Assembly: GCA_965235115.1 (NCBI GenBank)
Contig: OZ249436.1
Span: forward strand, 18,726,001 to 18,790,000
DNA length: 64,000 nucleotides
Source of the DNA: Laetmonice hystrix
Taxonomy: Eukaryota
Direction: 5' to 3'
Part shown: positions 40,301 to 64,000 of the stretch, piece after piece
Layout of the letters: every line of letters begins with the position of its first letter
Numbering within the stretch: the stretch's first letter is position 1
Notes under the pieces: model-generated
The model's database searches: none
The model's input: only the letters and a program-made list of their open reading frames with translations
Told to the model about the DNA's origin: nothing
Program-made: the position numbers and the translations under genes

Positions 40301-41965
40301 TTAACAATTTTAAACCGGTCTGAGGTTTTAAAAATATATGCCCCTAACATATATAGGCCTAAGCCTTAGTTTGTGGGTGGACATTAAATAACATATTGAC
40401 ATCACACGACACTGTTTATTCTTAGTTATAATAATAGAACAAATTCAGGCAAACTGACCAAAACAAACACCGCTCTGAGATCGCTTACGACATGGAGCAC
40501 GGGGCGTGAATACTGCGCCACCTTGTGACGAACAAACGCCAGACACAAACTTTCCCAGACTCTCTTACAGCGAGAGAGAGTCGGGTGACCGAGACTGGGG
40601 GTGTCCGAGCACAACTACAGCGAAGCGACCGGAAGTTGGGCCGAGGTTTTCCGAATGATGGCAGATCATGTCTCGGCCGTAATCGTCGGGTCGCCATTTT
40701 TGAAAGTAGTCACACAACTAAACAAACCCATGTGCTTTCCACAGCTCCCATCTTGGCCTTTGTCGCTATAAAAAAAATTCTAGTGAGTGTTGACGGAAGG
40801 GACGGTGATCAGAGTTATGTGAAATAACGTTTAATTGGTATCTCGCCTAGACTGCCTCACCAGTTTCCGACGATGGGACGAATGGAGGCATAAGCCATTT
40901 TCGAGTTGAGTCTCCCGATTTGGAGAGTTATTTCCCGACCTCCCGATTCATACTTAAAATCTCCCGATATCAAATTTCACCGCTGACAGAGCTCTATAAA
41001 TAGGCCTACATGGCTGCAGACTATAGCCGACAACTCAAATCAGACTGCAAGGCCTGTAACTTCAAACCCTCAAAAGATGAACTTAAAGCTGCAAATTAAG
41101 AATGCCACTTAATTACCTTTATAACCAGGCCCACAGGAGCAAATAAACAATGAACTTCGATCGAACTGTGACTGGACTTTTTGTTCTTGTTTTACATACT
41201 GTGCAATAAATTAATTAAGTAGGATTTAATTAATAAGAACTAAAAAAAGAAACAATGTACCGTGCTGTACAGGGCCCGAGGGTGGGTTGCACATTCATGT
41301 TTCGGTCTTCCGAAAAATTCTCCCTCTCTGACATTTGCCAAAGTTGACAGGTATGTGTTTCTCTCTGTTTTGGTTTAACTGCCGCGACTTTCCTTTGGTT
41401 ATCGGACAGTTTTCAAGTGCATAATGCAAACACTCATCAACCGCTGCCATTAGATCTATGCTGTAGGGATTACTTGGTCAGCGCGCATTGTGCCCAGGGG
41501 CGGATTCAGGGGGGGGGGCGAGGGGGCCGCGGCCCCCCCCCCCCTTTCGTCAGGGTACCAATCAGAAAAAAGGCAAAATTGTGTTGTTTGCAACTGTAAA
41601 AGCAAACATTTTGCTTTCTCAGAATGCAGGAAATTTCAGGAAATGCCATTTCAGAGACTCTAGATGATAAAAATTGTCCGGGGGCATGCCCCCGGACCCC
41701 CTACTAGGGCTCGGCCCCCCTTTAATTCCAACCGCCCCCCCCCCCCCTTTTCCAAAATCCTGGATCCGCCCCTGGTGCCCCCCTGCCTGCTTACTCATAT
41801 TCATTTGCGCCGCATCACAAAGTCACACAAATCTGTCCATTACACCCGAGGTGAAAATCCGAACCCACCGGAAGGTGGCGGACTTTCCCGAGGGTTCCCG
41901 AATGCACCCGAGGGTATATTCGAATAGCAAGAAGTGACGTCATTTGCCCGAAGGGATCCCGAATG

Positions 41966-42610
41966 GAACGCCACCTATGGTATATGTTAGAGACGATTAT
42001 AACGCCATCTAGAGTAGATAGTACCTGACGTCATGAACGCCACCTATGGTATATGTTAGAGACGATTGTAACGCCAATTAGAGTAGATAGTACTGGACGT
42101 CATGAACGTCACCTATGGTATATGTTAGAGACAATTGTAACGCCATCTAGAGTAGATAGTACCTGACGTCATGAACGCCACCTATGGTATCTGTTAGAGA
42201 CGACTGTAACGCCATCTAGAGTAGATAGTACCTGACGTCATGAACGCCACCTATGGTATATGTTAGAGACGATTGTAACGCCATCTAGAGTAGATAGTAC
42301 CTGACGTCATGAACGCCACCTATGGTATATGTTAGAGACGACTGTAACGCCATCTAGAGTAGATAGTACCTGACGTCATGAACGCCACCTATGGTATATG
42401 TTAGAGACGACTGTAACGCCATCTAGAGTCGATAGTACCGGACGTCATGAACGCCACCTACGGTATATGTTAGAGACGATTGTAACGCCATCTAGAGTAG
42501 AGAGTACTGGACGTCATGAACGCATAAATGCTAGAGACGATTGTAACGCTATCTAGAGTAGATAGTACCGGACGTCATGAACGCCACCTATGGTATGTGT
42601 GTCATGAACG
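41966..42610. repeat. 69-bp tandem repeat, about 9 copies
   Basis: unit GAACGCCACCTATGGTATATGTTAGAGACGATTGTAACGCCATCTAGAGTAGATAGTACCTGACGTCAT at 41966, 42035, 42104 and onward. Confidence 0.95.
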
Positions 42611-43839
42611 CTAATCCACCCGAGGGTATTCGAATAGCAGGAAGTGACGTCATATGCCCGAGGGAATCCCGAATGATCCTTTGGGTGTTTCCGACTATGT
42701 AGGCCTACTTCCGTTCAACATAGCGGCTACAGATGATTTCTCCGAAGATTTAGATGGTACTTTGTGTGGCATCATACTCTGACAGTCTGCGCCATATAAG
42801 TTAACAAAAGTGCCTCAGCAAAATCGAGCAGCCACGATTCGAGCTCGGCAATGTTCGGCTGTTCCAGTCAGGGATTTCTAGGTCAGGTCAGGGGTCACTC
42901 AAACAGCAGTAGAGAGTCTACCCCGGGCGTGGTCGACTCGCGTTAATCGGGCTGATCGTGTTTCACGCAAACTGCCCAATGTTGCAGTTCTAGTGACGTC
43001 ATTTGACCTAGTTGGGTCCAACACGACCAACCCACCCCCTTGGCCAAACTAGTTCCTACCGCGCATGCGCGACCTCATTTGTATCGGCCGGCTTATGGCG
43101 CTAGCACCAGCTGGCCTCATCACTTGTCATCTGGCTGACATATAGTGCCACTTCATTTAACACCCATAAAAGAAAATTAAGTCAATTGAAATAAAATGGA
43201 AATAAAAGATCTGCATTTACCAAAACTAGAAATGTAAGATTTCGGGCAAATAAATGTTGTAAATGATCAGAATTAGCAGCTTGTTTGCGAAAGTTTTTTT
43301 GCACGGGAAGTGATTCGTCTTTTGCTCGTAACCATAGAACGTGTGCTCGTAACCAATCAGACGACGTAATTTGATCACGTGCGTTTATTTACCGGCCAAG
43401 CACGTGCTTTTGTGTAGCCTACATGCTATGCACGTTTCCAGTAGACTACAGTATTTTTCCTTTAGAAAAATATTGCTTTTTCTTGCGAGTTATCTACAAT
43501 GGATCCCTTAGAAGGTTGCAGCAATGAATACTAGCTGACTGGCTCCAGTCTAGGTGTTGGCGTATAGCTTCTGTCGTACTCTACATTTCGCTCAGGCTAT
43601 AATATCGGCTCAGCTACCTATACCCGGCTTGGAGCCACTGGCCGGCACTTGGACGCAGCAACTCCCGACAGCAAGCAGTTGGCCTGTCGGTGTCCTGCCG
43701 CGCAACGCTGTTTTCAATTTTGGACACAGAAAACGTTATATAGAAGTCTAGGCCTAGGCCTGCTAAATCTAAAGCCCAGAAGACTTAGGCGTACAATGTT
43801 GAGGTTGGGTTTTATAACAAAATACCATTTAAAAGAAAA

Positions 43840-51648: not shown

Positions 51649-52568
51649 TTCTTCTTCTTCTTCTTCTTCTTCTTCTTCTTCTTCTTCTTCTTCTTCTTCT
51701 TCTTCTTCTTCTTCTTCTTCTTCTCTTCTTCTTCTTCTTCTTCTTCTTCTTCTTCTTCTTCTTCTTCTTCTTCTTCTTTCTTCTTCTTCTCTTCTTCTTC
51801 TCTTCTTCTTCTTCTTCTTCTTCTCTTCTTCTTCTTCTTCTTCTTCTTCTTCTTCTTTCTTCTTCTCTTCTTCTTCTTCTTCTTCTTCTTTCTTCTTCTT
51901 CTTCTTCTTCTTCTTCTTCTTCTTCTTCTTCTTCTTCTTCTTCTTCTTCTTCTTCTTCTTCTTCTTCTTCTTCTTCTTCATCTTCTTCTTCTTCTTCTTC
52001 TTCTTCTTCTTCTTCTCTTCTCTTCTTCTTCTTCTTCTTCTTCTTCTCTTCTTCTTCTCTCTTCTTCTTCTTTCTTCTTCTTCTTCTTCTTCTTCTTCTT
52101 CTTCTTCTTCTTCTTCTTCTTCTTCTTCTTCTTCTTCTTCTTCTTCTTCTTCTTCTTCTTCTTCTTCTTCTTCTTCTTCTTCTTCTTCTTCTCTTCTTCT
52201 TCTTCTTCTTCTTCTTCTTCTTCTTCCTTCTTCTTCTTCTTCTTCTTCTTCTTCTTCTTCTTCTTCTTCTTCTTCTTCTTCTTTCTTCTTCTTCTTCTTC
52301 TTCTTCTTCTTCTTCTTCTTCTTCTTCTTCTTCTTCTTCTTCTTCTTCTTCTTCTTCTTCTTCTTCTTTCTTCTTCTTCTTCTTCTTTCTTCTTCTTCTT
52401 CTTCTTCTTCTTCTTCTTCTTTCTTCTTCTTCTTTTCTTCTTCTTCTTCTTCTTCTTCTTCTTCTTCTTCTTCTTCTTCTTCTTCTTCTTCTTCTTCTTT
52501 CTTCTTCTTCTTCTCTTCTTCTTCTTCTTCTTCTTCTTCTTCTTCTTCTTCTTCTTCTTCTTCTTCTT
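51649..52568. repeat. ~920-bp (TTC)n/(GAA)n microsatellite
   Basis: near-pure TTC repeat with occasional phase slips. Confidence 0.98.
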
Positions 52569-55857: not shown

Positions 55858-56011
55858 ATGGCGCAAGCAGAAGGTGGCGACACTGATTTGATTTCCCATC
55901 GAGCCGAACTCTTTCGGTCGAAATTAATCGCAGATTTCCATTTGTTGGATACCATCAAGGAGACGGGAGGGACGACAGATGCTCCTAAATATGAAACGGA
56001 AGATCTGATTG
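55858..56011 (+). CDS. CATSPER2: CatSper2 coding exon 1
   Basis: catcag acceptor 1 nt before the ATG; G|GTAAGA donor. Confidence 0.9.
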
Positions 56012-59000
56012 GTAAGATAATATTTTTAGATAACCTGGAACAACTTACTTAGCCTAGGGCCTACAGTCACGTTTTACTAGATTGTTAATTTCTAGTAGAA
56101 GTTCAAGTCTACTAGACTCTAGACTGACTTAGGCTAAGCTACGCCTAGCTAAGGCTAAGCCTAGGCTAGGGCTAGGGCCAGGGCCGGATCTAAGCCAAGG
56201 GGGGGGGGACGTGGGCGTACGCCCCCTATTTTTGGCAGAGTAGTGATTTTTTTATCATTACTCTGCCCAGGGGGGTTCCCCCCGCCCCCCTAGGGCTTTG
56301 CGCCTTCGGCGCTCGCAATCTTCTCTAGGGGCTACGCCCCCCTTTCTAAGAAACCAGCTGGATCCAGCCAGGGCTATACTTGCTATACTGCCTAACGTTA
56401 CAGACAATTAATTATACAGATATGCTATGGCAGTATGGGACTGAAACGTCATCATGTTGCCCGTGTATTTTTTGCGTCTGGCTTGCACTGACCGGGCACA
56501 GCCTACACGGGGCACAGCCTGCACGGGGCACAGTCTGCACGGGGCACAGCCTACACGGGGCACAGCCTGCACGGGGCACAGCCTGCACGGGGCACAGTCT
56601 GCATCGGGCACAGCTTGCACTGGGCACAGCCTGCATCGGGCACAGCCTGCACCGGGCAACACCAATCCCGTCCCCATGCACTACCCAAACCGGGCACAGC
56701 TTGGACCGGCCGCAGCCTGCATGCCATGGGGCATAGCTTGGACCGGGCACAGCCTGCACTGGGCACAGTCTGCACCGGGTACAGCCTGCACGGGGCACAG
56801 CCTGCACGGGGCACAGTCTGCACCGGGCACAGCTTGCACCGGGCACGGTCGGGGCACAGCCTGCGCGGCCCCGGGGCGCTGCCTGCACCAGGCACAGCCT
56901 GCACCGGGCAACACCAATCCCGTTCACTGCCTGAACCGGGCACAGCTTGGACCGGCCGCAGCCTGCACGGGGCATAGCTTGGACCGGGCACAGCCTGCAC
57001 GGGACACAGCCTGCACTGGCTTAGCCTAGGCCTAGATCTAAACCTAGGTTAGCGGTAAAAAAAAAAAGGGGGGGGGGGAACCATATCCATATTATATCAA
57101 TATAATATTGTGTTGGGGGGGGGGGGGGGTCCCGAAGTTGTTCGTTCATATTGAAGAGGCTAGAATTAACTTCAAGTAGCCTTTACTTTAGTTTAGGGTT
57201 GAGGTATAATATAGGCCTACGCTACGGTAGTTTGTAACGAGTCCCAACACATTCATTAAATGCTAATAATAATGGCGTACCAGGTATAGAGGCTATGTGA
57301 AACAGGCCCCTGAACAGTGATCTCGACAGTTTGGCTCAGACGTTCGGGGTTCCCGGCCTGTACCTTTGCACTGAACGTTCTGCATGTACCGTACATCACT
57401 ACATGCGTGTGTTAGCCAGCACACCAGTCACCAGGCATGATACAAACCGTACTGGCGTAGCCTTAGCTAAGTAAGGTAGGTTATGGCAAAAACTAAAAAA
57501 GGTCCCCGCACCCTGCACCCAGTAAAATCCGAATCCTTTATTGATGGCCCTCTTTTTAAACGGTAAAAATAACCACGTATTCGACCCACACTATAGAGAG
57601 ATCGAAAGACCACGAAATACAAATAAGTTCTCAGAAACTGATATTGATCTAATTTGATTGCGTCCACGGACAGATCCTGCTCAGCAGCAGAAGATCCTGA
57701 AACAGCACCCCGACGCCCTGGTACGCTTCCAGATGTACACGAAGAAAGCTGGAGTCAGTCCTGGCGACCGCAGACAAAACAGAGTCCGCTACAAAAACTC
57801 CAAAAATCCCAGTCTCGATGTTTGGGCTCACTGGGTGGTGGAAAGTATCCTTTTTATTCACCATATTCATAAAGCAAACATTTACCAAAAGTTTTCAAAA
57901 CGCTAAAGAATTCATCCCTCTACTCGGCTCTCTAAAACTAGTATAGATTAGAAGTTGAACTCATGAGGAAAGAGAGCTTTAACTTCGAATTGTTATTTTT
58001 CAAGGCCCCCTGGAAGTTTTGTCCTTGACTGCTCTCCCAGGTGCTCCGTTCCAGAACTCTGTTTTGGCTCTGATTTTGCTCAACAGTGTCGTACTTGGTG
58101 TTCAGGGGGGTAAGACTGGTGTCAATAATAAATAACCTCGCAGAACTCAATAAATATATTAAAGTTCAAGTGATGATGTTATTGCAGGGTGACCACAGCA
58201 CAGGGAAAACACAGAGAATTTCTTAAAATCGCCAAAACACAGGGAAAACAGAGGAAAAGAATTAACAACCAATAAAACATTGTGATGGGGCAGCCGCAGG
58301 GGAAACACATAGAATTTGAAAATCAATTTGTGTGGTCGCCATGACCACCATGAGTATTAGTAAACGTTGTATGGATGAAGAGCAAATCCTGCATTATTTC
58401 TGTAGAAATATGGACAATCTAATTAAAATTAGATCTTGGTATTCCGCGTCTCTCTCGGCTGTGTCAGTGTTGCCGCGCTCCATAGCGCATGCGAAATAAC
58501 TAAGACCTAATTTTAATTAGATTGAAATGTGGATGACCCACTTACACAGGTACATATTAATTTCTCTTCCAGAGTTGAGTGGTATCATTGACGAACGGGT
58601 AGAGAAGATCAAGCTAGCCCTCGATATATTTGACTATTGCACCATGTTTGTGTACATGATGGAAATTTTCCTGAAGTGGATAGATGACTTCTGGGGTTTC
58701 TGGAAGAATCGATGGAATATATTTGACTTTTTCGTCACTTTTCTTGTAAGTTTTATTGCCCTCTCACTCTGACTGCAGTTTTCATGTTTTCTTTTTTTTT
58801 TACCTGGCTCTGCATAGAATTTCTTAATGATTTTCACGAGATTAACTAATATTTCTCTCATTCAGTTTCTTATCCCAGAAATCATTAACTTTTCGACTGG
58901 GGAGTTTGGGAAACGCAATGCCAAGTCGGACCTAACGGTGATTGCCAACAACTTGCGGACATTTCGTATTCTCAGGTCACTGAAGATGGTGTCTAGGTTT

Positions 59001-62000
59001 CAGAAAGTCCGTCTCATTGTGCTCGCCGTCACGAAAGCTTTCCAGGTTAGGCCACAAATTGGGTGACATCTATTTATTATGCTTTAATAATATTTAACCT
59101 TTACCCGGGAATAAGGCATTTTTAGCGGTGACAGCGTGTTATAATTTGTTTAATTTTCACACGCCCAGGCCATGGTGTTTATCACCGTTCTACTCCTCGT
59201 GTTCGCCTATATTTTCGCAATCATTGGCGTCAGCTTCTTCAAGGACGGTTACGTGAACGCCCAGGTCACTGGTCTGGCCAAGTCTCTGAAATACGAGGAC
59301 AGTTTTACGTAAGTTCTTTAGGAGATACATCAAACCCTCTATACACGCACCTGTTTACTGGAAAGGGCGCGTTTATACGCCATTATTGTGTTCTTATAGC
59401 AAATGTTTCTGTGATACCATATACTGCGAATTTGGAATGAGCTATACCCTAACCACGGGTTTAGACGGCGGTTACATTATTACGATTCATTTCACATACA
59501 TTTCTTTTGTTAGTCCTACGTGCCCCACCTGTTCGCCCTCTGGCCCATGTCCGACCTGTCTGAGCTCTGACCAGTACCCCACGTGTTTGACCCGTGTCCA
59601 ACGTATTCAGGTCGATCGGGACGGCCCTGATCACATTATTCCAGCTGTTCACCCTGGACCATTGGCTGGCCGTGTACCGCGACATCACCTCCGTCACATC
59701 GCCCCTCTTTGGCGCCTTCTACGTCATCCTCTGGATCATCATCGGCTCCTTCATCTTCAGGAACATCTTCGCTGGCATTATGGGCAAGTCTCCATGACAA
59801 TACTAATACAAAACTCAACCCCCGTTATTATGCCAACCTTCGCGATACAATAACCATCCAGTTGCGTGGTCGGAAACGCAATGTCAAGTCGGACCTGACG
59901 GCGATTACCAACTTGCGGGCGTATAGTATTCTCGCTGTCTACCCAGGGATATTTTTATTGCCCCCCCCCCCCCCCCCCTTGACTTTTGACAACCCCAAAA
60001 GGTCCAGAATTTGGGAGGCATATGTCGGAAAGAAAGATCCACAATTTTGGATGTTTTGTGAACTGATTCATGGACCTCTGAGCCATGTGCCAGAGATAAA
60101 GGTTCATAAGATGGCAAGAATATTGGGATCTTTTGCCAAATATCTGGACCTCTGACCCAGTGGCTTACTAAAAAGGTCCACAATTTTGGATCTTTTGTGA
60201 AATATCTGGAGGTCTAGACCACCCCCTTCCCACCCCCGTAGAAAAAGGTCCAATTTATTTTAAAGAAAGGGTCCAAAATCTCAAATGTCACCCCTTGGAG
60301 ATTTGATAAAAAATATCCCTGCTACCCTATAGGCCTAGACTGACTGAGGAAGTTACTAAGCGTATTGGCCGCTGTCGGTACAACAGAGCATTTTGTCGTA
60401 CAAATTAGTATATGAATGTATGTACCAGTCCCAGCAGGGGTAAGAATGGCCGCGGATAAAAGTGATGGCGATCGATGATGATGTGTGGTCCCTGCCATGT
60501 TGTTTCAGTGAACAACTTCCAGAGTATTCGGAAGGACCTGTTCCAGGAGGTGAAGGAGATGAAGGAGCGTGAGCAACATGACGCCGACATGATGGAGCTG
60601 GCCGGCGAGATGGAGCGCCAACTCCAGAAGTACGCTTCCATCATATAGTCCGGGGGCCGCGACAGACCGTCAGACAGGCGACGGGAAGTCTTTCGCTTGG
60701 TTGTAGGGCCTGGTACTCATGGTCTGTCGCTGTTCGTGAACCCCCTCCCCCCCCCCCCCCCCCCCCCGAGTCTGGAGGTGGCTTTAGATGTCAAATAGTG
60801 TGTAGACTCTATCACCTGAATCTGAGCGTTTTACAAGCTAAAAGTGTTGGGTTTGGGTGCGAGGCATCACTTTTACGTAGTCAGACGAAAATAATCAGCC
60901 TGGATGATCGGGGATGGGGTGACATTAAAATAGTTTTATATAGAATGTTTACTTTAATAGAATTTTATTACTGAGATGTCATTTTAAAGCCCACACAACG
61001 TACTTTCAGATTATACTCATTATGGTATCAATCGTCAATATCTAGGTAACCAGAGGTCAAAAGGTGATCTGACCATGATATCGTTGATTATTGATAAAAT
61101 TCTTGCAGACAGACGAGCACTCATGCCATTCCAACCGGGCGGGCAGACCAAGAACCTCAGGCGGGACCCTCCCACACTGACAATCACATCCCACCGGGGT
61201 AAGTCAACCTCAGACGGGACCCTCCCACACTGACAGTCACAACACACGGGGTAAGTCAACCTCAGACGGGACCCTCGCACACTGACAGTCACAACACACG
61301 GGGGTAAGTCAACCTCAGGCGGGACCCTCCTACACTGACAGTCACAACACACCGGGGTAAGTCAACCTCAGGCGGGACCCTCCTACACTGACAGTCACAA
61401 CACACGGGGTAAGTCAACCTCAGGCGGGACCCTCCCACTCTGACAGTCACAACACACGGGGGTAAGTCAACCTCAGGCGGGACCCTCGCACACTACACAG
61501 TCACAACACACGGGGGTAAGTCAACCTCAGGCGGGACCCTCCCACACTGACAGTCACAACACACGGGGTAAGTCAACCTCAGGCGGGACCCTCCCACTCT
61601 GACAGTCACAACACACGGGGGTAAGTCAACCTCAGGCGGGACCCTCCCACACCGACAGTCACAACACACGGGGGTAAGTCAACCTCAGGCGGGACCCTCC
61701 CACTCTGACAGTCACAACACACGGGGGTAAGTCAACCTCAGGCGGGACCCTCCCACACTGACAATCACATCCCACCGGGGTAAGTCAACCTCAGGCGGGA
61801 CCCTCCCACACTGACAGTCACAACACAGCGGGGTAAGTCAACCTCAGGCGGGACCCTCCCACACTGACAATCACAGCCCACCGGGGTAAGTCAACCTCAG
61901 GCGGGACCCTCCCACACTGACAGTCACAACACACCGGGGTAAGTCAACCTCAGGCGGGACCCTCGCACACTACACAGTCACAACACAGCGGGGTAAGTCA

Positions 62001-62706
62001 ACCTCAGGCGGGACCCTCCCACACTGACAGTCACAACAAACGGGGTAAGTCAACCTCAGGCGGGACCCTCCCACACTGACAGTCACAACACAGCTGTGGC
62101 TTTCTCTCCTATATATTTTATTTCAGACCCACCCCGAACGATTCCAGACGAATGTTTGAAACCCAAGGCAGTCTGAGGGAAGCCATCAGTGATCACGTGA
62201 TCAGCTCGGAGAGGCAGAGTTTGGGTAAGGCTATAACTTCAGATTCGACACCCCGTAAGATTTTGAGGGTGTGATGGAGTTCTTTCTGGGAGACAAACTG
62301 CTGGGGGGGGGGGGGGGGAGGGGGGTGTGAAGATAGCAGAAAATCAAAAAGTTGAGGTTGGGGTACAATTATAATACTGTATCTACTAAATTACGGATAG
62401 GCTAACAACTGTCGTTTACATGGACTCCACCAGTTTCAATCACTTTACACGCCCACCACCGCACGGCGCTGCGATCAGTCACCGACTCTGACGTGACTGT
62501 CTATGTGTGTGTGTATCTCAGAGTGGCAGCGAGTTGTGGAGCGCCACCTATACAACCTGTCCAAGGAGGAGACAAGCTACTGTTGGCCCAAGGACACCCT
62601 CTTCAGGTACTTCCAGGTGATGGAGGCCCTGCAGGAGAACCTCACAGAACGCCAGGAGATCCTAACCCTGGCCAACGAAACGTTGATCCACCTTCACGAC
62701 ACGTAG
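55858..62706 (+). CDS. CATSPER2: Cation channel sperm-associated protein 2 (CatSper2), complete, 11 coding exons, 517 aa
   Basis: Exons 55858-56011, 57674-57844, 58041-58109, 58573-58745, 58866-59045, 59169-59308, 59611-59783, 60509-60629, 61109-61198, 62127-62224, 62522-62706 sum to 1554 nt in one frame. CatSper2 features: N-terminal RAELFRSKLIADFHLL and DPAQQQKIL..LVRF; S4 LRTFRILRSLKMVSRF; pore LFTLDHW; S6 IGSFIFRNIFAGIMVNNFQSIRK; C-terminal WPKDTLFRYFQVMEALQENLTERQ. Confidence 0.95.
56490..57017. repeat. 16-bp GC-rich minisatellite (GGGCACAGCCTGCACG) with a higher-order duplication
   Basis: directly visible; lies in a CatSper2 intron. Confidence 0.93.
57674..57844 (+). CDS. CATSPER2: CatSper2 coding exon 2
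   Basis: DPAQQQKIL...LDVWAHWVVE; ends at the U12-type donor GTATCCTTTT. Confidence 0.9.
57845..58040 (+). other. U12-type (minor spliceosome) GT-AG intron
   Basis: 5' GTATCCTTTT; branch site TCCTTGAC at 58022-58029, about 12 nt upstream of the 3' splice site. Confidence 0.9.
58041..58109 (+). CDS. CATSPER2: CatSper2 coding exon 3 (S1: SAPFQNSVLALILLNSVVLGVQG)
   Basis: follows U12 branch site TCCTTGAC and cccag; GTAAGA donor. Confidence 0.9.
58573..58745 (+). CDS. CATSPER2: CatSper2 coding exon 4 (S2-S3)
   Basis: EIFLKW...FWKNRWNIFDFFVT. Confidence 0.93.
58866..59045 (+). CDS. CATSPER2: CatSper2 coding exon 5 (S4 voltage sensor)
   Basis: LRTFRILRSLKMVSRFQKVR. Confidence 0.93.
59169..59308 (+). 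CDS. CATSPER2: CatSper2 coding exon 6 (S5)
   Basis: AMVFITVLLLVFAYIFAIIGVSFF. Confidence 0.92.
59611..59783 (+). CDS. CATSPER2: CatSper2 coding exon 7 (pore plus S6)
   Basis: LFQLFTLDHW; ends at the GC donor G|GCAAGT. Confidence 0.92.
60509..60629 (+). CDS. CATSPER2: CatSper2 coding exon 8 (VNNFQSIRKDLFQEVKEM...)
   Basis: tttcag acceptor; coiled coil after S6. Confidence 0.88.
61109..61198 (+). CDS. CATSPER2: CatSper2 coding exon 9 (low-complexity linker)
   Basis: ttgcag acceptor, GG|GTAAGT donor, phase 2-2. Confidence 0.7.
61153..62093 (+). repeat. ~53-bp minisatellite, about 17-18 copies, each containing GG|GTAAGTC
   Basis: unit AACCTCAGGCGGGACCCTCCCACACTGACAGTCACAACACACGGGGGTAAGTC. Confidence 0.96.
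62127..62224 (+). CDS. CATSPER2: CatSper2 coding exon 10
   Basis: tttcag acceptor, G|GTAAGG donor, phase 2-1. Confidence 0.8.
62522..62706 (+). CDS. CATSPER2: CatSper2 last coding exon
   Basis: WQRVVERHL...WPKDTLFRYF...LHDT*; AATAAA near 62958. Confidence 0.92.
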
Positions 62707-64000
62707 GTCAACCTGTACCACGTGTCCAGTTCCTACCCACTCATTGGCTCAGTCCACGTTGTCATGGATACGGGAGACCAAGGAACGCAAGATCATCCTG
62801 ACCCTGGCCAACGAAACTTTGATCCACCTCCACGTTAACCTGTAGGCCTATCACGTACGTGTCCCGTTCCTACCCCCTCTTTGGCTCAACCCACATCGTC
62901 ATGGTTACGGGGGTCATGGTTACTGTGTATTGTTTTTCTATTTAGAAAACAGCGAGTAATAAATATGTATCAACTTCCGAAGATACCTTCATTTTTACAA
63001 GAAAGGTACACTTAATATCTTATCTCCCTCAGTGCAGGTTTCGAAGTGTCCGATATTAAAACGCTCCCAAGAGAAGAATTTTGTCTTACTGGACTTTCTT
63101 ATAACAGGCCCGTAGCCAGGGGGGGTGCGCAGGGTGCGTACGCACCCCCCCCCCCCCCCGACAGCCCAAGCTCCCCCTAATTTCAAAAGGTCGCAAGCAC
63201 TCGCTGGAGTACCCTGCACCCCCCCCCCCCCCCCCCACCTGCCCAACAGTCCAAGATCTTCCTAACTTCAGTTATTGTATGCTCCAAATTGCACCAGATA
63301 TCACCAAAATACACCTTAAATTCCAAAATTTTCTGGGGGACATGACCCTGGACCCGCCTAACTAGGCTTCGCGCTCTCAGCACTAAAAGTTTGCGGGCTT
63401 CGCACCTTTGGCCTGTGGGGCTTGTGTGCTTCGTGCCTATAGCTATGGGCGCTGGAGGACTGTAGGGGTAGGGGGTAGGGGGATTGCATTCCTGTTATAT
63501 TGACAGCCAAGGCCGTAGCTAGCGGGGGGGGGGGGGGCAGTTTCCCCCTGTAACACCCCCCCCCTCCAGAAAAATGTCATATTATATAGGCCTAATTTGA
63601 CTGCAAACTGGCTGGGATCGTCGGTGGTATCCTCAAAAGTGGCCCAGCAGGCTTTTCATTTCTATCAGAAAAGTGATCTCCAGATGCCGGGAAATAGCGG
63701 GTTTCTTTTGCCTTCCATATTATTTTTTTCCCCAAGGGAGGGCCCCCGGACCCCAAGCCGCAGGAACGGCTCACTCCATCGGCGCTCGCTGAATTTTACC
63801 TTAGCCTACAGCTTTATCTCTGCAGCCCCCCCCCCCCCCCCCCCCCCATATCTTGTCCATTACATTTGTAGGCTATAGTAGGCCTATTCCCATGTAGGGA
63901 GGGATCCAGGTTGGCGCCAAATGGGGGGAGGGGGGGTTGTGAGTGCCAAGAATGGGGGTAGGCCCCCTATGCTTGGTTTGAACCTTTCAAGCAGAAAAAA

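Follow-up and report, generated by a model that had tools for sequence, protein, structure and literature searches.

The window analyzed in this study is a 64,000 nt stretch of Laetmonice hystrix DNA (contig OZ249436.1) that contains a CatSper2 gene (Table 1). Both the identity of the gene and the numbering of its exon 9, as given in the original prediction, are borne out by PDB matches and by the spliced contig described below. The best PDB matches of exon 7 are CatSper2 chains (E = 9.6e-13), with CatSper3 next (8.5e-05), and the sole PDB match of the last exon is the C-terminus of CatSper2 (7eeb_B, residues 527-587; E = 6.2e-07). The gene encodes a six-helix ion-transport domain with a TLDHW pore motif that is nearest to CatSper2; Ion_trans (PF00520) was matched in three of the eight CatSper2 exons scanned against Pfam, and the other five, including exon 9, gave no match. 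The five nearest informatively named BLAST homologues are CatSper2, CatSper2-like or ion transport proteins; the nearest homologue is 46% identical and the CatSper2 of Branchiostoma 45%. When the last exon served as query, a word-index protein search returned 17 candidates, none of them at an E value of 0.001, where a HMMER protein search found 133.

The mean identity to 20 homologues is 0.43 for the last exon and 0.06 for exon 9 (0.05-0.06 in both halves). Judged by sequence comparison, what exon 9 encodes is a putative cytoplasmic linker that is unconserved. Including exon 9, the linker comprises 125 residues, with a median of 124 and a range of 47-262 among 25 homologues, and skipping of the exon was computed to preserve the reading frame.

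Table 1. Features of the CatSper2 locus and of the minisatellite at the exon 9-intron 9 boundary (positions in the window).
Feature	Position	Strand	Remarks
CatSper2 gene	55858..62706	+	11 coding exons, 517 aa; one open frame over all 11 exons
Exon 1	55858-56011	+	Open frame
Exon 2	57674-57844	+	In spliced contig
Exon 3	58041-58109	+	In spliced contig
Exon 4	58573-58745	+	In spliced contig
Exon 5	58866-59045	+	In spliced contig
Exon 6	59169-59308	+	In spliced contig
Exon 7	59611-59783	+	GC donor; in spliced contig
Exon 8	60509-60629	+	In spliced contig
Exon 9	61109-61198	+	90 nt, equal phase at both ends; residues 394-423; in spliced contig
Minisatellite array	61153..62093	+	52-54-bp units; 17 whole units and one cut unit
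Array unit 1	61153..61205	+	Last 46 nt of exon 9 and first 7 nt of intron 9
Donor 1 (authentic 5' splice site)	61196..61206	+	Cut after 61198; contig departs from genome there
In-frame TAA within donor 1	61200..61202	+	Would end translation at codon 425 of 517 if exon 9 were extended
16 pseudo-donors (span)	61251..62051	+	Same sequence as donor 1
Pseudo-donor GTs 1-8	61251, 61304, 61357, 61409, 61462, 61516, 61568, 61621	+	
Pseudo-donor GTs 9-16	61674, 61727, 61780, 61833, 61886, 61939, 61993, 62045	+	
Unique intron tail and predicted acceptor	62094..62126	+	33 nt; no other T-rich pyrimidine tract in intron 9
Predicted exon 10	62127-62224	+	Frame runs on into conserved last exon
Exon 11 (last coding exon)	62522-62706	+	Conserved CatSper2 C-terminal segment; open frame

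The main feature of intron 9 is a minisatellite that begins within the preceding exon. A unit of approximately 53 bp, made up of about 46 nt of the end of exon 9 and its donor and repeated through the intron, had been predicted, and this was confirmed using Tandem Repeats Finder (61153-62092, period 53, 17.8 copies, 93% matches), in which its score of 1617 is second only to that of a TTC microsatellite among 18 rows for the window. The array comprises 18 unit starts but 17 GTAAGT donors (61199 to 62045), which follow one another at 52-54 nt, unit 18 stopping short of its donor. Thus, the predicted number of about 17 donors holds, although 16 rather than 17 of them are additional to the authentic site; a donor in every unit is not found, as the last unit has a CTCAG and no donor, and the first CTCAG is exonic, lying inside exon 9. 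The array occupies 895 of the 928 bases of intron 9 (96%), leaving just 33 nt of unique sequence ahead of the predicted acceptor (62126), and holds 17 of the 38 plus-strand GTAAGT motifs of the window (18 per kb versus 0.33 per kb elsewhere). No further copy of the unit was found in the window, where the best local scores outside the array were 20-30 (match +2). Among the 17 units there are 14 distinct sequences, with 13 variable columns and 0-4 differences from the consensus: units 1 and 12 are identical, unit 7 resembles unit 16, and units 6, 9 and 11 are alike. This recurrence of variants at scattered positions fits turnover within the array. Three clustered positions set unit 1 apart from the majority unit.

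From -3 to +8 the 17 donors share one sequence, and the 18 columns surrounding the donor are invariant across the 17 units. The strength of this donor is ordinary for the gene (it matches the consensus at seven of 11 letters, and ten donors of the gene range from 5 to 8), and its competitors lie 52-846 nt downstream of the first copy. As had been predicted, reading beyond donor 1 gives GGG TAA, an in-frame stop, which falls at codon 425 of 517; an exon 9 lengthened to one of the later donors would therefore include this stop (computed for donors 2-4) and would lose the conserved C-terminal segment of the last exon. Since the stop lies at least 146 nt upstream of the last exon junction, extended transcripts would fit the 50-nt rule of decay, should that rule operate in the host animal. 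On the acceptor side, the predicted site at 62126 is the best of the 54 AG sites of the intron, pyrimidines making up 16 of its 20 nt and T alone 12, and the ten real acceptors of the gene have 11-16 pyrimidines and 5-12 T. The CTCAG sites have 8-10 pyrimidines and 3 T and are without a pyrimidine tract; where they would need one, the donor is located instead. An alternative acceptor at 62093 would add 11 codons in frame but is also without a pyrimidine tract.

Transcript evidence was taken from one unlabelled run (X4, one of four runs, none of them recorded as RNA; one sample, one study), judged to be transcript-derived solely from its spliced contig. This contig (2189 nt, depth 148.2) agrees with the prediction at every junction between exons 2 and 9. 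It includes exon 9, inclusion of which had been proposed as a test, joining 60629 to 61109 and covering 61109-61198, and its match to the genome stops precisely at 61198, after which another 818 nt follow. The join of 61198 to 62127 is predicted. With an exon 10 of 98 nt, those 818 nt would end near 63241, a figure that has no bearing on the predicted join. The comparison with read contigs covered donors 1-2 of the array (to 61260); all four runs derive from one sample, their contigs break at the array and, since the depths are sums over overlapping contigs, the array copy number is not readable from DNA depth. No X4 contig lies on 61199-61260, an interval in which minor or decayed forms would be missed in contigs: the depth of 50.5 in the bin 61167-61260 equals that of the spliced contig alone over 32 of its 94 bases (50.45), so that nothing is left for the remainder. 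Within donors 1-2, no X4 contig reaches the first pseudo-donor and no 37-39-nt unit-derived piece is present on unit 2. Because assembly into contigs loses forms that are rare or prone to decay, the result describes the dominant form only. Use of donor 1 in that form goes some way towards the condition under which the original proposal was to be refuted, and minor leakage to later donors would be invisible.

Minisatellites that repeat a donor across an exon boundary are already known in human and amphioxus genes, and CatSper2 is a new case. The closest precedent found in the literature is the 37-bp repeat of intron 7 of human F7 (Borensztajn et al., 2006; PMC1557585), in which, as in CatSper2, the first unit spans the boundary, identical donors continue down the intron and the most upstream one is used. 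In F7, only the most upstream site was used and donor choice was unchanged in minigenes with 1-12 units; the repeat is polymorphic in length, and its pseudo-donors become active once the first donor is inactivated. The F7 repeat has 5-9 copies of 37 bp with four exon bases per unit, compared with 17.8 copies of 53 bp and 46 exon bases in CatSper2. Furthermore, two F7 pseudo-sites are given there as free of a premature stop, whereas the stop inside donor 1 of CatSper2 would truncate every extension, and the array fills nearly the whole intron. Donor-repeating arrays of 10-25 units are also described for human 6-16, CBS intron 13, LAMIN B2 and PDGF intron 4 (PMC1557585), with unit numbers near that of CatSper2 in PDGF (16-18) and CBS (15-20). 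The authentic donor alone is reported to be used in LAMIN B2 and PDGF, while splicing in 6-16 and CBS also employs two pseudo-sites; unlike the latter two, the X4 contigs show no pseudo-site use, a comparison of weak power that covers donors 1-2.

In amphioxus, the 'mirages' of Adh3, BflGb6 and BflGb9 (Ebner et al., 2010; PMC3087553) are tandem duplications of exon-intron boundaries on either the donor or the acceptor side. Many of their units carry splice signals, they evolve in concert and show haplotype and somatic length instability, and they are reported not to disturb regular splicing. The CatSper2 array resembles them as a minisatellite-like boundary duplication with repeated splice signals in an invertebrate; its 53-bp unit compares with units of 10-72 bp in Adh3 and 150-160 bp in the globins (PMC3087553), and it lies in another gene and, by protein distance (45% to the Branchiostoma CatSper2), in another animal. 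In a search of the literature, too weak to establish that the locus is unpublished, none of the papers listed mentions CatSper2.

With a first unit that spans the boundary, a repeated donor that is unchanged, retention of the most upstream donor in the dominant form and turnover of units, the array is another case of the F7 intron 7 or mirage type and is most likely neutral. We consider it very probable that it arose as a boundary-spanning minisatellite by local duplication, that its first donor is chosen by position and that it is close to neutral. According to this reading, a 53-bp segment spanning the donor of exon 9 would have been duplicated in tandem, as suggested by the overlap of unit 1 with the end of exon 9 and by the confinement of the unit to the array, and then amplified and mixed by the slippage or unequal exchange that is usual in minisatellite turnover. 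The spliceosome would pair the acceptor of exon 9 with the donor lying furthest upstream, position deciding because the 17 donors are the same in sequence, and the whole array would be removed as an intron to give a normal CatSper2 mRNA. If a later donor were occasionally used, the TAA of donor 1 would be brought in and the message truncated or decayed; errors would thus cost a little mRNA and make no new protein, and the array may persist because it is close to neutral. The invariance of the 18 donor-flanking columns counts against plain neutrality, and the leak in 6-16 and CBS may, by analogy, count against a purely first-donor reading. The array is a clean example of an exon that retains its first donor in the presence of 16 identical competitors and, judging by protein distance, lies outside vertebrates and cephalochordates. 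It could be used in an invertebrate as a natural test of donor choice by position, all wrong choices having one stop in common.

It is unlikely that an otherwise neutral array leaks without regulation, with donor 2 or 3 taking a noticeable minor share of splicing and the resulting transcripts being degraded or encoding a channel without its C-terminal segment, so that CatSper2 output is slightly lowered. The sequence identity of the donors and the two pseudo-sites used in each of 6-16 and CBS (PMC1557585) are consistent with such a leak, and its transcripts, if subject to the decay for which the codon 425 stop would qualify, would be scarce in steady-state RNA. However, the contig is unbroken through the junction and no other X4 contig lies on 61199-61260; in F7, moreover, 50 further clones per transfection are reported to have yielded no other variants (PMC1557585).

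A selected function, as originally proposed, is very improbable: the units would act as copy-number-tunable U1 decoys or as a splice switch setting CatSper2 dosage via decay, or would supply repeat-derived mini-exons to the linker. Each unit has a donor and an AG, 14 of the 17 intronic units also hold a CTRAY branch-like motif approximately 32 nt before the next CTCAG, the donor columns are unvarying, and human tandem repeats can affect splicing (PMC10078293). In addition, the wide range of linker lengths among the homologues suggests that the linker tolerates length change, and in-frame inserts would therefore be tolerated; the frame is kept by two of the 16 CTCAG-to-donor mini-exons and by eight of the 12 GACAG mini-exons. 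However, the decoy or switch is unsupported by the dominant transcript, which uses donor 1, by the identity of the donors, by the unconserved linker that exon 9 encodes and by F7, in which copy number did not affect donor choice (PMC1557585), and the invariance of the nine donor columns is not significant (P = 0.08-0.17 for random placement of 9-12 changes). Nor are exons entered through CTCAG supported, since these internal acceptors are without a pyrimidine tract, 14 of the 16 mini-exons shift the frame and no unit-derived piece appears on unit 2. Recursive splicing was rejected, as no AGGT occurs anywhere in intron 9, and RNA structure marking donor 1 is not supported (61090-61420; z = 0.48 versus shuffles). 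A length-variable dial, in which more units divert more transcripts to stop-carrying donors and allele length sets the CatSper2 dose via decay, as a possible target of selection at the level of sperm, would stay hidden from the contigs because diverted transcripts decay, and we give it very little credence. Greater importance would attach to the array only if CatSper2 level and sperm performance proved to be tuned by allele length, and there is no evidence that they are.

The reverse origin, in which the minisatellite was present in the intron before exon 9 was extended into unit 1 or formed out of it, making the last 15 residues of the exon newly coding, is extremely unlikely: exon 9 is symmetrical, removable in frame and unconserved, and unit 1 departs from the majority unit, but the unit does not recur elsewhere in the window, the linker with exon 9 is at the median length and boundary-crossing local duplication is a documented pattern (PMC1557585; PMC3087553). 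The 5' half of exon 9 was also considered as an older copy of the unit and rejected, its match being equalled by 610 of 2000 shuffles and by 61 of 1385 44-mers of the window.

The host gene of the ~53-bp minisatellite is identified by its predicted protein as CatSper2. Matches to PF00520 were obtained in three of the eight exons scanned, the best PDB matches are CatSper2 chains for exon 7 (E 9.6e-13) and a CatSper2 chain for the last exon (E 6.2e-07). Of 133 homologues, those nearest to the protein belong to Priapulus, Branchiostoma, Pocillopora and Lineus and share 42-46% identity with it, which indicates an invertebrate lacking close relatives in the collections searched. Exon 9, the end of which is overlapped by unit 1 of the array, has an equal phase at its two ends and its skipping would therefore preserve the frame. 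Among 20 long homologues taken by BLAST rank from the 133, some with very long linkers being left out, its mean identity is 0.06; the corresponding values are 0.25-0.47 in exons 1-8 and 0.43 in the last exon. Judged by this comparison, its product is part of an unconserved cytoplasmic linker, which has 125 residues here and 47-262 in the 25 of 133 homologues in which both bounding motifs were matched.

The original prediction of tandemly repeated donors at this exon edge was borne out. Among 18 unit starts there are 17 GTAAGT donors, 52-54 nt apart and all of the same sequence from -3 to +8; on the plus strand this motif occurs at 18 per kb inside the array versus 0.33 per kb outside it in the window. 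Unit 1 consists of 46 nt of the exon 9 end and seven intron bases. The 18th unit stops short of its donor, and 33 unique bases separate it from the end of the intron at the predicted acceptor, 62126. The array occupies 895 of the 928 bases (96%) of intron 9. The 17 units comprise 14 distinct sequences; units 1 and 12 are identical, and other variants recur at places scattered along the array.

Features of the CatSper2 locus and other repeats of the window
Feature	Position	Description
CatSper2 gene	55858-62706	11 exons, single open frame, 517 residues
Intron 1 minisatellite	56491-57016	16 bp, 32 copies; mid-intron, away from exon edges
Dispersed repeats, introns 3 and 7	58340-58580, 59940-60310	High copy
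Intron 7 GC donor	59783/59784	Contig joint 59782 -> 60508, one shared letter
Exon 5-like stretch, intron 7	59859-59912	Short likeness to ~58910-58965, judged by eye
Exon 9	61109-61198	90 nt
Donor array	61153-62092	Period 53, 17.8 copies, 93% matches (Tandem Repeats Finder)
GTAAGT donors	61199-62045	17
CTRAY branch-like motifs	61230-62080	14
Exon 10 (predicted)	62127-62224	
Tandem duplication	62659-62911	137 bp, diverged, 79% matches; coding end and 3' UTR start
Minisatellite	41966-42600	69 bp, 9.3 copies; similar short stretches either side (~41905-41965, 42617-42675); by eye, no apparent splice donor motif
TTC microsatellite	51649-52568	Very long, ~307 copies, 95% matches

Reading beyond donor 1, exon 9's genuine 5' splice site, gives GGG TAA, the in-frame stop that had been claimed, at codon 425; it sits inside this donor and is therefore carried by extension to any later one. 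For extension to donors 2-4, the stop was computed to lie 146-252 nt upstream of the last junction, which fits the usual distance rule for decay, an established rule not known to operate in this animal. The CTCAG sites of the array have 8-10 pyrimidines and three T in the upstream 20 nt, and the ten real acceptors of CatSper2 have 11-16 pyrimidines and 5-12 T; by sequence, the internal AG sites are thus poor acceptors. Mini-exons running from CTCAG to a donor keep the frame in 2 of 16 cases, and the proposal that such exons are inserted found no support in these tract-poor sites. Pieces of 14-15 nt from GACAG to a donor keep the frame in 8 of 12.

The locus is covered by four runs from one study, all on one sample, which may also be the one that was assembled. 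None is on record as RNA; three behave as DNA, and the fourth, X4, was recognised as transcript-derived through a single spliced contig, record 25, which is 2189 nt long and has a depth of 148.2. Contigs were aligned over 57600-61260, ending within unit 2. Record 25 has a joint for each of the seven introns that separate exons 2 to 9, among them 60629 -> 61109, and contains exon 9, its last piece stopping exactly at 61198, with 818 nt further. In this one contig from one sample, donor 1 is used and exon 9 included in the dominant transcript form; the onward join to 62127 is a prediction based on the reading frame and the pyrimidine tract. In the bin 61167-61260 the X4 depth is 50.5, and record 25 alone over 32 of the 94 bases would give 50.45, so that, within the aligned region, the start of the intron, unit 2 and donor 2 are free of X4 contigs. 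A unit-derived exon of 37-39 nt on unit 2 was absent from the dominant form of X4, where it was expected to be visible, and one of 14-15 nt would be too short to appear in a contig alignment. Contigs lose minor forms, and decay would deplete such forms further. An unregulated leak of splicing to the donors following donor 1 is an unlikely alternative. In all three DNA runs, a contig anchored to unique upstream sequence carries C>G at 61169, which is synonymous in unit 1 and absent from all array units of the window; this contig is probably a second haplotype, reaching 61199 too.

Arrays of this kind are already known. In the human F7 intron 7 VNTR, according to Borensztajn et al. (2006; PMC1557585), the first 37-bp unit crosses the donor, the most upstream site is the only one used, pseudo-sites become active once upstream sites are inactivated, and splicing does not differ among constructs of 1-6 or 8-12 units. 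The Introduction of that paper cites two used pseudo-sites each for the 6-16 array (of 25) and the CBS array (15-20 units), and use of the first donor alone for the LAMIN B2 and PDGF arrays. Amphioxus 'mirages' are length-unstable arrays of such kind, which reportedly leave regular splicing undisturbed (Ebner et al., 2010; PMC3087553). The CatSper2 array belongs to this class of donor-repeating minisatellite, showing a boundary-spanning first unit, a repeated donor, use of the first donor in the dominant form and unit turnover; however, it has more exon per unit, fills 96% of its intron and places a stop inside donor 1.

We consider it likely that the array arose by neutral local amplification across the donor, with the first donor chosen by position and errors bearing the stop. 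A 53-bp piece across the exon 9 donor would have been duplicated and then amplified locally, and turnover would have mixed the units; a search across the window found no other copy of the unit outside the array. The donors match 7 of 11 letters of the donor consensus (range 5-8 for this gene). As they have one sequence and a strength that is ordinary for this gene, the choice must depend on position, and donor 1 is the one used in the dominant form. Errors would carry the stop and yield no new protein.

While the anatomy of the original prediction stands, its functional reading found no support. A selected, tunable splice switch is very improbable. In its favour, CTRAY motifs, one per unit in most units and each directly followed by AG, lie ~32 nt upstream of the next CTCAG in 14 units, inside the 19-37 nt quoted in PMC10078293; however, between the two the donor sits where the pyrimidine tract belongs, intron 9 contains no AGGT recursive site and RNA folding around donor 1 is not above shuffles (z 0.48). 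The donor columns show no variation, but at P 0.08-0.17 from only 9-12 independent changes this invariance is no demonstration of selection. There is similarly little reason to expect that the array acts as a length-variable dial on CatSper2 dose via decay, and recruitment of the exon 9 end from a repeat already present is scarcely credible.

Other repeats were noted within CatSper2. The tandem duplication at the coding end is a second exon-edge duplication, its second copy still resembling the last ~20 residues and closing with a stop, and the exon 5-like stretch is another small exon-sequence copy. The contig joint at the GC donor is consistent with a GC-AG intron, and the dispersed repeats in introns 3 and 7 reach a summed DNA depth of 10,000-150,000, versus ~40 in unique sequence.
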